DNA of 64,000 nucleotides from NCBI GenBank assembly GCA_963823555.1, contig CAWGMA010000004.1, forward strand, positions 640,001-704,000. Reading direction: 5' to 3'. Every line of letters begins with the position of its first letter. Positions within the stretch are counted from its first letter, which is position 1. Of the stretch, positions 42,186-49,239 are shown in pieces. Position numbers and translations under genes: made by a program. Under the pieces are notes generated by a model. The model did no database searches. It saw only the letters and a list, made by a program, of their open reading frames with translations, and was not told the DNA's origin. Source of the DNA: Candidatus Eiseniibacteriota bacterium. GTDB lineage: Bacteria > Eisenbacteria > RBG-16-71-46 > CAVPCR01.

Positions 42186-42194
42186 TGATAGAAT
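42186..42194 (+). promoter_or_regulatory. Possible extended -10 promoter element
   Basis: TGnTAGAAT about 75 bp upstream of the ATG at 42268. Confidence 0.3.
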
Positions 42195-42267
42195 GGCATC
42201 AAAGCAACCGGCGCAAGCAAAAGGCCCCGCCGGACCTCATGAGCCAGCCCCCTGCACGGAATTTCCA

Positions 42268-43869
42268 ATGTCGAACGGCAACCGAACCCTCTCCCTCTGC
42301 TTCCTCCTGGCGCTCATGGCCTGGGGCGGCGCCGCCTCCGCGCAGTGCATGCTCGCCAACCCGAGCTTCGAGATCCCCGGCACCGGCGGCATGCGCTTCG
42401 GCGGGTGGAACCAGTTCGGATCCGTGGGCTCGTCCGCCGATGCCACGCACGGCGCGGTCGCGGCCCGGGTGTCCGGCCCCAATCAGGGCGGCTGGGATGT
42501 CTCGGGGTTCTGGCAGCGCCTGGATTCGGCTCCCGGCGAGCGGTGGACCGCTTCGGTCAAGGCCTGGCACACGCCGACCCGCCCGCTCACCGGGCAGTCG
42601 GTGGCGATCCTCAACATCGAGTGGAGAAGCTCGAGCGGCGCCCTGATCGACTACGAGTCCCACGCGGTGGCCAGCGCCTCGACCCCCCTCGACGAGATCC
42701 AGCTCTTCACGGTGGAGAGCGGGCCGGCGCCCGCGGGCACCGCCGCCGCGCACTTCCTTCTCGGCGTCCTGCAGAGCCCCACCGATCCAGTGCCGGATGT
42801 CTACTACGACGAGGCCACCTTCGACAATCTGGGTCCTCCCACGCTCGATGAGAAGCAGTGGTTCGACTTTCCCGGCGGGCGGACCGTCGACTTCAGCGGT
42901 CGCATCTGGCGCGTGAAGGGGCCCGGCTACTACGGCCCGGGCCCGAACCTCTTCAGCGACGCGCCGAGCTCGGTCTGGGTGGACGTGGAAGGCAGGTTGC
43001 ACTTGACGATCCGGCGCATCGCCAGCTCCTGGTACAGCACGGAGGTGGCTCTCGAGGAAGCGCTGGGCTACGGCGACTACATCTTCACGACCCGCGGGCG
43101 GCTCGATGAGCTCCATCCCAATGTCGTCCTCGGCCTCTTCCTGTGGCAATACGGGGCGTGCTACGACCCGGCCTATCTGTGGTGGAACCCCCACAACGAG
43201 ATCGACGTGGAGTTCAGCCGGTGGGGGCAGCCGGGGATCGATGGGGCGCAGTTCGTCGCCCAGCCCTTCGACTACCCGGGGAACATCAACCGCTTCAGCG
43301 TCACATTCAGCGCCGACGAGCTCACGAGCCACGCGTTCAACTGGCTCCCCGATCGGGTCGAGTACCGGAGCTGGCGCGGCGGTCCCGGAGACGAATCGCC
43401 CACGAGCCTGATCCACGCCTGGACGTATCGCGGTCCGCACATCCCGCGACCGGAGCAGCCGCGGGTGCACATGAACCTCTGGCAGTTCGAGGCCCCGCCG
43501 AGCACCGATCAGGAAGTCGTGATCGACGAATTCACCTTCACCCCGGCGGGCAGTCCCAGCGGTCTTGCCGATGTGGAGCCGGCGCCTGCCGCCGCGGTCG
43601 CTCTCCACCCGGCGCGACCGAATCCGTTCAATCCCTCGACAACGATCAGCTACAGCGTGGCGCACTCCGCGCACGCGGAGCTCGTGATCTACGATGTCAG
43701 GGGGAGGCTCGTGCGCGCGCTCTGGCGCGGAACGGTCCCGGCGGGGCGGCACGAAGTGATCTGGGATGGCCGGGATGACTCGGGGGCCCGGGCCGCATCC
43801 GGGGTCTACGCTTGTCAGCTTCGCGTCGGCACGGTCGAGGAGACGAGACAGCTCGTCCTCTTGAAGTAA
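42268..43869 (+). CDS. Secreted CBM-like + GH16-like glycoside hydrolase + FlgD-Ig tail
   Basis: Signal peptide ending ASA; LANPSFE beta-sandwich; LGYGDY; NEIDVEFSRWG (ExDxE); tail PNPFNP...IYDVRGRLVR...WDGRD...SGVY. Confidence 0.75.
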   Translation: MSNGNRTLSLCFLLALMAWGGAASAQCMLANPSFEIPGTGGMRFGGWNQFGSVGSSADATHGAVAARVSGPNQGGWDVSGFWQRLDSAPGERWTASVKAWHTPTRPLTGQSVAILNIEWRSSSGALIDYESHAVASASTPLDEIQLFTVESGPAPAGTAAAHFLLGVLQSPTDPVPDVYYDEATFDNLGPPTLDEKQWFDFPGGRTVDFSGRIWRVKGPGYYGPGPNLFSDAPSSVWVDVEGRLHLTIRRIASSWYSTEVALEEALGYGDYIFTTRGRLDELHPNVVLGLFLWQYGACYDPAYLWWNPHNEIDVEFSRWGQPGIDGAQFVAQPFDYPGNINRFSVTFSADELTSHAFNWLPDRVEYRSWRGGPGDESPTSLIHAWTYRGPHIPRPEQPRVHMNLWQFEAPPSTDQEVVIDEFTFTPAGSPSGLADVEPAPAAAVALHPARPNPFNPSTTISYSVAHSAHAELVIYDVRGRLVRALWRGTVPAGRHEVIWDGRDDSGARAASGVYACQLRVGTVEETRQLVLLK

Positions 43870-47540: not shown

Positions 47541-48473
47541 TCACTTGATCAACGTCATGCTGCGCGATGACCGGCCGAGCGGCGTCTCGAGCACGTAGTG
47601 GTAGACGCCGGCAGCAGCCGGAGAGCCGTTGGCCATCTTGCCGTTCCAGGTCGCCTGATGGGGACCGGCATCGAGCTGGCCCTCGAGCAACGTGATGACG
47701 AGGCGGCCGCCAACGTCGTAGATGCTGAGATCCACCGCGCTCTGCTCCGTGAGGTCGAAGCGAATGAGCGTGGCCGGATTGAAGGGATTCGGCACGTTCG
47801 GGTGCAGGACGAGCGACTGGGGCGCCGGCGCCGGAGCGTCGGACACGCCGATCACGAGTTCCTGCAACGAGGCGTCGTCCCAGAAGATCGATCCGCTCTG
47901 GGCGCCGTCGATGTCGACCTTGACGATGACGGCGTGGACCGTGGCCGTGTTGGGCGGCGCCGGAGCCGTGCCGCAACCGAGCAGCGTCCACTCATCCTGC
48001 GGCGTGGTGGCATCGATCAGGTTCGACTCGAAGATGTCGACGCCGAACAGGCCGCCGGCAGCCAGCTGGCCGCTCGCGTCCCGGAACTCGATCTTGTAGA
48101 CGCCGAAGTCGACATCATCGATCGGGTCGGTGCTCGAGTTCATGGCCCAGACCTCGCCGTTCCAGGTCTCGCCGGGTTCGGCAGGCAGTGCTTGGGTGCC
48201 GCCCGAGCCGCCCGCGGGAACGAAGGGGCCGAAGGTCTTCAAGCACTGCGCTCCGGAGCGGAACAGGGTGGCCGTCGTGAAGACGTTGTTGAAGGTGTCC
48301 CAGTCGGCGGTGCCGGGCACATCGCCGCCCGAGGCATCCGGCGCCTCGAAACCGGGATTCAAGAGCTGGGCGGATGCCTCTCCGCCCACTCCCACGAGGA
48401 ATAGAGTCCCTGCGACCATGACGCAGCCCCAGACCAGGGTCCTTGTGAAGGACATGGCGCGCTCTCCTTTCAT
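47541..48473 (-). CDS. Secreted CBM-like beta-sandwich protein with FlgD-Ig tail
   Basis: Signal peptide ending ASA; QLLNPGFE...IFWDDASL domain; tail PNPFNP...IYDVGGRLV...WNGK...GVYHY. Confidence 0.8.
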   Translation of the reverse strand: MKGERAMSFTRTLVWGCVMVAGTLFLVGVGGEASAQLLNPGFEAPDASGGDVPGTADWDTFNNVFTTATLFRSGAQCLKTFGPFVPAGGSGGTQALPAEPGETWNGEVWAMNSSTDPIDDVDFGVYKIEFRDASGQLAAGGLFGVDIFESNLIDATTPQDEWTLLGCGTAPAPPNTATVHAVIVKVDIDGAQSGSIFWDDASLQELVIGVSDAPAPAPQSLVLHPNVPNPFNPATLIRFDLTEQSAVDLSIYDVGGRLVITLLEGQLDAGPHQATWNGKMANGSPAAAGVYHYVLETPLGRSSRSMTLIK

Positions 48474-48587
48474 GCCTCCGGTCGCGACATCCCGACGCCG
48501 GCGCTGCTGCTCGCGCCGGGCCCCAGGGTAGCCCCCGGAGGATCGGGGGCACCCTGGATGGATTCGAAACCGGCTAGGGGCGATCGA

Positions 48588-49239
48588 CTAGAACAGGCTC
48601 TTGATCTGACCCCAGGAGCTCGGCTCGACGGGCACCGGGTCATCGATGAACAGCCGGGCGTCGTCCCAGAAGATCGATCCGCCCTGAGCGCCGTCGACGT
48701 CGACCTTGACGATGACGGCCTGGGCATAGGCGGTGTTCGCCGGCGCGGGAGCCGTGCCGACGCCGAGGAGCGTCCAGACGTCCAGCGGCGTGGCGCCGCT
48801 GATCTGATTCGACTCGAAGACGTCGACGCCGAAGATGCCGCCGGCGGCAAGCTGGAAGTTCACATCGAGGAACTCGATCTTGTAGACGCCGAAGTCGACG
48901 TTGTCGATGGGATCGAGGCTCGAGTTGAGCGCGATAGATCTCGCCGACCCAGGTCTGACCGGGCACGGCCGGGAGCGCCTGCACGGCGCCGGAGCCGCCG
49001 CCCGGGGCGAAGGGCCCGAAGGTCTTGAGGGACTGCGATCCGCTGTGGAAGAGAGCCGCGGTGGTGAAGACGTTGTTGAATGAACTCCAGTCGGCCGTAC
49101 CGGGTACGTCACCGCCGGACGCGTCCGGCATCTCGAAGCCGGGGTTGAGGAGCTGGGCGGATGCCGTACCCGCCATTCCCATCACGAGGAGAGACAACAT
49201 GGCTGCGACGCCAACTGAGAAACGGTTGCGCTTGGTCAT
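48588..49239 (-). CDS. Secreted CBM-like protein, close paralogue of 47541..48473, ending in PVEPSSWGQIKSLF (1 apparent frameshift near 48933)
   Basis: ORF 48640..49239 gives the signal peptide and QLLNPGFE...; ORF 48588..49112 gives ALNSSLDPIDNVDFGVYKIEF...IFWDDARL...SWGQIKSLF*. Confidence 0.8.

Follow-up and report, generated by a model that had tools for sequence, protein, structure and literature searches.

The locus described here raises the question of why two adjacent genes encode nearly the same secreted domain but end in different tails, and what the shorter tail does. The two genes, A and B, lie in the window, the whole stretch of 64,000 nucleotides that was analysed; the genome to which the window belongs is labelled G000, and C1 and C2 are its contigs. 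An earlier note had described A and B as adjacent paralogues, both with a signal peptide and a similar ∼170-residue domain, differing in their tails. This description is borne out (Table 1). The two reading-frame pieces of gene B share 74.4% (86 residues) and 75.5% (94 residues) identity with gene A, that is 74–76%, and the similarity stops at the WDD strand, right after the shared domain as had been stated. Neighbouring genes of A and B encode a GH1 glycosidase, ABC transporter components and a further FlgD-tailed protein.

Table 1. Features of genes A and B (positions are those of the window)
Feature	Position	Strand	Description and basis
Gene A	47541..48455	minus	304 aa; signal peptide, CBM-like domain and FlgD-Ig/T9SS-type CTD
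Gene A Sec-type signal peptide	48369..48455	minus	Residues 1–29, A-S-A end; sequence and homologue alignment
Gene A shared domain, ∼170 aa	47865..48368	minus	Putative beta-sandwich, CBM16/CBM4/CBM22-like fold; model of homologue P0010 and Foldseek
Gene A tail	47541..47852	minus	I-G-V-S-D junction, Pro/Ala linker, FlgD-Ig CTD, stop
Gene B	48588..49239	minus	∼216 aa in nature; signal peptide, same domain and short tag; split in the assembly
Gene B Sec-type signal peptide	49156..49239	minus	Residues 1–28, A-S-A end; sequence
Gene B tag PVPVEPSSWGQIKSLF and stop	48588..48638	minus	Sequence, read contigs
Surplus base (sequencing error) shifting the frame of gene B	48935		Left out in contigs of runs X1, X3 and X20

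The start of gene A was taken at 48455, one further in-frame ATG being located at 48473. The C-terminal tail behind its signal peptide and cargo matches PF13860 (FlgD_ig) with 38.5 bits (cut-off 27), and it passes TIGR04183 narrowly, with 23.2 bits against a cut-off of 23; gene A is an ordinary example of T9SS type A CTD cargo. Gene B ends in ...FWDDARLFIDDPVPVEPSSWGQIKSLF*, the stop codon occupying positions 48588–48590. The base at 48935 is missing from the contigs of three of four public runs, the fourth having no coverage there, and one 151-base contig spans the stop codon with one difference. The frameshift near 48935 is an assembly error; gene B is intact in nature and its stop is genuine. 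Because the read contigs omit that base and span the stop, a continuation of gene B into a FlgD tail, the outcome that would have undone the earlier reading, is excluded. One contig from an RNA run overlaps gene B in part, with about 95% identity; this is no demonstration of transcription. Between 39600 and 58000 of the window, many further genes contain single-base frameshifts (GH1, ABC transporters, a glycosyltransferase), which are probably assembly errors like that at 48935. On the plus strand, 42193–43869 encodes a 558-residue secreted protein with a FlgD tail; its first domain begins like the shared domain, and its middle region, which contains an EIDVE motif, has no Pfam match and is presumably GH16-like.

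The tail of gene B is one of many copies in G000. Its consensus, hereafter the tag, is x-[AP]-V-E-x-x-[ST]-W-G-x-[IV]-K-[AS]-x-[YF]-R, 16 residues in length. In a six-frame translation, 101 of the 109 occurrences of [ST]WGx[ILVM]K fall within 10 residues of a stop, compared to 0–3 terminal matches in five residue shuffles; at the DNA level, the tag pattern matched 84 times in G000 and never in the reversed control. Tags located at most 11 residues from the stop define a set of 104 proteins from 58 BLAST families. A profile trained on the FlgD tails of G000 itself retrieved 252 terminal FlgD copies, and no segment of G000 has both tails. By a loose heuristic, starts resembling a Sec signal peptide, as T9SS type A CTD cargo possesses, are present in 84/104 tagged and 186/239 FlgD-tailed proteins, compared to 460/1013 controls; many of the tagged proteins without a detected signal peptide are frameshifted fragments. 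The cargo in front of the tag is small (median 232, maximum 497 residues), that in front of the FlgD tail having a median of 656. A FlgD-tailed homologue exists for 36 of the 104 tagged proteins, and 17 of these match up to the junction; the tail swap seen in the window is thus a general habit of this genome. The expectations that the motif is common, largely specific to C-termini, mostly accompanied by signal peptides and exclusive with FlgD tails all held. These observations support the view that the tag is a signal on exported proteins, portable and almost always at the C-terminus, and that it fills the slot of a T9SS-type CTD. The earlier note, which read it as a sorting signal, was largely right: the signal and its slot stand; two destinations for the copies and a separate export pathway are conjectural.

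To which cargo is the signal attached in the window? The AlphaFold2 model of P0010, an intact homologue of the window cargo, is a predicted CBM-like beta-sandwich (mean pLDDT 85.7), followed over the tag by coil and a short low-confidence helix at residues 210–216 (pLDDT 59–60). In Foldseek, the best matches of the model were CBM16, CBM4, CBM22 and CBM61 (2zey: E 3e-08, TM 0.70 by target). The galactose-binding-like domains of these families appear to have the same fold as the shared domain but are only about 20% identical to it, and the domain, as represented by P0010, has no Pfam match; it is putatively of the carbohydrate-binding type. The tag, or a variant of it with F, M or I at the W position, terminates 41 of the 82 homologues of the window domain; a FlgD tail is present in 18 and a PEP-CTERM-like tail in 21, and two have neither; the PEP-CTERM-like tail takes the place of the tag in Planctomycetota-labelled and other records. 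Four tag/FlgD pairs among the homologues, whose two members lie on contigs of equal length, suggest that the tandem arrangement recurs elsewhere. In a quick tree of the domain, which covers 70 of the 82 rows, 14 of 15 FlgD rows fall into one supported clade together with two tagged rows, so the tails were switched more than once; we claim no order of events.

The tag is widespread beyond G000. Its DNA pattern is present in 148/151 genomes of G000's phylum and in 9/9 genomes of the phylum of G151; Latescibacterota are patchy, with at least six matches in 20/71 genomes, and in 120 genomes of G234's phylum the pattern is at background level. The number of tagged genes per genome ranges from 1 to 95, across nearly the whole phylum and several neighbours. 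By title, the matches listed in a GTDB scan are mostly from Eisenbacteria, Krumholzibacteriia, Latescibacterota or unclassified organisms. A 31-column profile of the tag retrieved 1,311 clusters at 50% identity, and the best 150 of them all have a motif copy at most 22 residues from the end, none being longer than 473 residues. Tagged genes also occur in two MAGs, G233 and G234, labelled Acidobacteriota and Gemmatimonadota; the tagged contigs of G233 bear FlgD-tailed genes as well, although that genome has no SprA or PorU match, which suggests that these contigs are misbinned. Such conservation over 58 unrelated cargo families in G000 and 1,311 clusters, with invariant residues of its own, effectively refutes the idea of a truncated CTD whose remnant has no function, even though the tail opens with the same junction as the FlgD tail.

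Searches of 71 tags against Pfam and NCBIfam gave no match, including to TIGR04183, PF18962, PF13860 and PF07589; comparison with PDB sequences and the Atlas gave nothing usable, and a literature search at listing level found no description of the motif, or of a T9SS in the tag-bearing phyla. The tag is uncatalogued: we found no family model, solved structure or paper for it. PEP-CTERM signals (PF07589) consist of a transmembrane helix and a basic tail and are processed by exosortase. Like them, the tag is short, portable and C-terminal, and they can replace it on the window cargo domain; different from them, it has no hydrophobic helix or transmembrane segment and no PF07589 match. T9SS type A CTDs (TIGR04183, PF18962, FlgD_ig PF13860), which are shuttled by PorV and processed by the sortase PorU, occupy the same slot behind Sec cargo, in the same genomes; they and the tag have similar junctions of a small residue, V/I and an acidic residue, and a conserved Lys near the C-terminus. 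In contrast to these CTDs of 70–80 residues, the 16-residue tag is predicted to form a short strand and a helix, neither a beta-sandwich nor a three-stranded sheet of 40–80 residues; it often has Pro at +1, is confined to small cargo, can be repeated or internal and matches no model. The short CTDs of Prevotella intermedia are, in the portion of PMC11969387 drawn on here, shortened T9SS signals that keep the cleavage-site motif, which the tag may retain in its junction; at 40–55 residues they retain three strands and motifs B, D and E, all of which the tag lacks. The tag thus fails the tests that define T9SS CTDs and PEP-CTERM signals, and it belongs to no catalogued family.

A lead to the reader of the tag came from proteins that contain several tags. 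Among the best 150 of the 1,311 profile hits, six are multi-tag proteins and all belong to one family, mostly lipoproteins, while none of the other 144 has several tags. In this family the tags form arrays of up to five, and they are found between domains, directly behind the signal peptide in P0094 or within a loop in P0243; both internal tags of G000 belong to the same NTF2-fold lipoprotein family. Since the tag can be internal, tandem or N-terminal in this one family, a docking motif fits it better than a purely terminal export signal. The family led us to a tandem pair, NTF-A (G000 C2:174327–174911) and NTF-B (C2:173417–174076), both on the minus strand. A lipobox-like Cys is present in 19/21 NTF-A and 22/24 NTF-B proteins. 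No consistent acidic export signal follows that Cys, and we therefore do not claim surface exposure. In both proteins C-x-N-P-F often lies directly behind the lipobox, echoing the PNPF motif that opens the FlgD CTD (L335–L354). The pair is often located near tgt-yajC or secD-secF-like genes and a divergent polysaccharide deacetylase.

NTF-A ends in a pattern, [ST][WF][TSG]xL[RK]Gx[FYN], that is in register with the tag. The tag regex matches within the last 22 residues of 42/66 NTF-A homologues, and most of the remainder keep the register with L, M or V in place of W; in 38 of 41 measurable homologues the pattern lies 9–10 residues after the last strand, which contains WxD. At 5 bits or more, the HMM of the cargo tags matches 5/21 NTF-A tails and 4/420 shuffles. 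About two thirds of 24 NTF-B proteins end within about six residues of that same strand, and about six have a tail of their own. To see how a tag may sit on this fold, we modelled P0238, an NTF-B-type paralogue with a cargo-type tag, with AlphaFold2. Based on a 14-row alignment, with confidence and secondary structure inspected, the single-chain model (pLDDT 84) shows the cone of three helices and curved sheet of a predicted NTF2-like fold, supported by the match to 3rob (Z 13.6, rmsd 2.6, 124 aligned residues) and by Foldseek (E 2e-06). The tag block reaches pLDDT 92 and the linker in front of it 68, compared to 59–60 for the tag on the cargo P0010. The confident placement is one in cis, on the same chain.

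We next consider the distribution of the pair. In a sample of 80 genomes, 31 tagged and 49 untagged, NTF-A is present in 28/31 tagged and 5/49 untagged genomes, and NTF-B in 26/31 and 5/49. Two genomes, G153 and G154, were scored as tagged from one locus each; eight Latescibacterota scored as "untagged" contain one pattern match, which begins with a stop or Cys codon in seven, the eighth being G208. Neither protein was found in 22 PorU-less Latescibacterota, whose relatives score 1e-21 or better for NTF-A, and neither was found in 22 genomes of G234's phylum, 15 of them untagged with canonical PorU, by HMMs trained without members from that phylum. The profile is confounded by descent, as the 22 Latescibacterota without the pair appear to form a single lineage that has also lost canonical PorU. 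Four Latescibacterota (G167, G173, G181 and G182) possess the pair with at most one weak tagged cargo, and an Arg variant of the tag, absent from C-termini in G000, does not supply cargo for them; G128 has the pair without any tag-pattern match. The fragmented genomes G233, G234 and G235 have 4–6 pattern matches, and neither lipoprotein was found in them. In Latescibacterota the gene order is a BNR and FlgD protein, two PorV/PorQ-family genes, an M50 peptidase, NTF-A and NTF-B, and in the phyla of G000 and G151 it is a ∼660-residue barrel, NTF-A and NTF-B. In G000 the gene directly upstream of NTF-A (C2:174939–176930) encodes this unnamed outer-membrane beta-barrel, for which only a weak BBP2 match was obtained. 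Because the pair lies beside PorV/PorQ-family barrels or a large barrel, and disappeared along with canonical PorU in one group, it likely belongs to T9SS-linked attachment machinery.

Taken together, these observations point, at about even odds in our judgement, to the following reading: the tag is a copy of the terminal helix of NTF-A that docks in trans on the open site of NTF-B, so that a lipoprotein linked to T9SS attachment keeps small exported cargo at the outer membrane. The tag may have arisen from NTF-A's terminal helix. The groove of NTF-B would be free, its own matching helix being missing in the majority, which stop at the last strand. After Sec export, tagged cargo would bind NTF-B by helix complementation and would be kept at the outer membrane. 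For the duplicated gene of the window, one domain of the carbohydrate-binding type would be routed by two signals. More tentatively, and with slightly unfavourable odds, we extend this to Eisenbacteria, Krumholzibacteria, Latescibacterota and their kin, where an NTF2 lipoprotein without its last helix would capture exported proteins ending in a copy of that helix and display dozens of small modules, both binding modules and enzymes, non-covalently on the envelope, self-tagged and multi-tagged paralogues chaining into a lattice. As far as our look-ups show, neither a tag receptor of this kind nor the derivation of the tag from its family has apparently been described before.

Docking of this type would have analogies. 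In cohesin–dockerin systems, cargo is attached to an anchored scaffold through a portable docking module. In donor-strand complementation, as outlined in the part of PMC9046445 available to us, a peptide of another chain completes the unfinished fold of a subunit in chaperone-usher and type V pili. The proposed docking would work in a similar way; different from both, it would involve an NTF2 fold instead of an Ig or transthyretin-like one, a helix instead of a strand, many unrelated cargo proteins instead of pilin subunits, and no calcium-binding repeats. Several findings count against it. The helix of NTF-A itself could occupy the site of NTF-B; docking alone does not account for the conserved [GASP]-V-[ED] junction; in G000, about 100 cargo genes stand opposite a single untagged NTF-B gene; the alignment behind the model is shallow, and the profile is confounded with PorU loss; five genomes have the pair with no or nearly no cargo, and the three fragmented genomes have tags without the pair. 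Proteins resembling NTF-A also occur in Rhodothermota, Bacteroidota and Ignavibacteriota, none of which is represented in the 123 tag loci listed.

Alternatively, the tag may be a minimal T9SS signal, read by SprA together with PorV or a paralogue; PorU would then cut at x|[AP]-V-E and attach the cargo to a surface glycan, NTF-A being the oldest cargo. We regard this as the main competitor, though a less likely one. The tag sits in the slot of the CTD, and [GASP][VI][ED] is found at a fixed register in 78/104 tags, while [TSVIA][GASP][VI][ED] precedes 51/206 FlgD tails (shuffle mean 12.8, maximum 22), a four-fold enrichment. At known PorU sites the +1 residue is small, and in P. intermedia Ile follows at +2, according to the section of PMC11969387 used here; the invariant Lys near the end of the tag recalls the conserved Lys of type A CTDs, as far as the consulted part of PMC10994853 describes it (for CTD linkers, see the part of PMC4804311 consulted). 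G000 contains SprA, a PorU-PorV operon, a second PorU-like gene (C1:349495–353904), about eight PorV-family loci and 21 Peptidase_C25 matches. Canonical PorU exceeds the cut-off in 20/20 tagged and only 4/30 untagged Latescibacterota; in the other 26 untagged genomes, SprA and PorV-family genes persist along with a long PorU-like paralogue, but FlgD hits number only 6–24. By contrast, PorU is not sufficient for the tag, since canonical PorU without a real tag occurs in 15 of the 60 genomes sampled from G234's phylum, and G234 has four real tags and no PorU match. SprA_N is present in 65/68 genomes regardless of tags, and PorV-family matches in 68/68. The tag lacks the beta-sandwich, where even short CTDs have three strands; Pro is found at +1 in 43/104 tags but in only 5/64 FlgD junctions; and tandem, internal and N-terminal tags are ill-suited to a signal that is cleaved off a terminus. 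When G000 PorV (36-row alignment) was modelled as a complex with the 30 C-terminal residues of gene B (71-row alignment), the score was 0.00 and the controls did not fold, which makes the prediction uninformative for either side. The two readings could be combined, with NTF-B serving as an adaptor of PorU. If the tag does prove to be a T9SS signal, it would be by far the shortest.

A different dedicated reader, such as the second PorU-like C25 protein, the DUF5683-like pair, an M6-like protein or the barrel upstream of NTF-A, is improbable. G000 does have the second PorU-like gene, and the porU-porV operon holds conserved uncharacterised genes; in addition, ten untagged PorU-bearing genomes of G234's phylum have one DUF5683-like gene instead of two and no M6-like gene in the stretch examined. 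Against such readers, all 26 untagged PorU-less Latescibacterota keep the long PorU-like paralogue, whose orthology to the second copy of G000 is putative; the untagged G200 and G203 retain both DUF5683-like genes and the M6-like gene; and the barrel was not found in two tagged Latescibacterota with a single-protein query. The second PorU, the DUF5683-like pair and the M6-like protein were set aside as readers, for they do not track the tag across genomes. The operon itself (G000:C1:700000–716000) continues behind porU-porV with genes conserved in several phyla, encoding an M6-like protein with a CTD, a peptidase-MA/WD40/Omp85 protein, one or two DUF5683-like proteins, an NHL protein, a ∼1,100-residue SprA-related barrel and a BamA-like protein; some Latescibacterota keep this operon from which porU is gone.

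Direct binding of the tag as an amphipathic helix to the outer-membrane surface or a glycolipid, with no protein reader, has still less in its favour. W, I and Y/F lie on one face of the predicted short helix, the net charge is about +1.6, and repeats would add avidity. The helical hydrophobic moment, though, is barely above that of shuffles (0.40 versus 0.36), the near-invariant Gly and Lys together with the upstream V-E would suit a shaped pocket, and neither the packing on the NTF2 domain nor the co-occurrence with the pair is explained.

Naming NTF-B as the candidate receptor turns the question of who reads the tag into a two-protein binding assay, for which culture of the organism is unnecessary. 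Should the docking on NTF-B be right, the tag and its receptor would represent a new class of sorting signal and a new mode of envelope anchoring, the signal having originated in a structural helix of the receptor family itself. It would also yield a display handle of 16 residues and allow much of the secretome of uncultured FCB-related phyla to be annotated.

Some further observations concern individual loci. The C25 matches of G000 (C1:489988–519129 and elsewhere) include six tandem gingipain-like genes of ∼1,600 residues with FG-GAP-like repeats and FlgD tails. A single-copy, lamin-tail-like secreted protein (C1:312343–313191) keeps the tag even in the tag-poor family f7; we considered this protein as a pointer to the tag machinery and rejected it, its neighbours being metabolic, with upstream genes that we take to be an aminotransferase and a carbamate-kinase-like gene. 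On viral contigs we obtained 15 matches, of which four are real terminal tags on proteins of the signal-peptide type or fragments and the rest are due to chance; in IMG/VR, contigs L253, L260, L263 and L264 carry terminal tags on small proteins.
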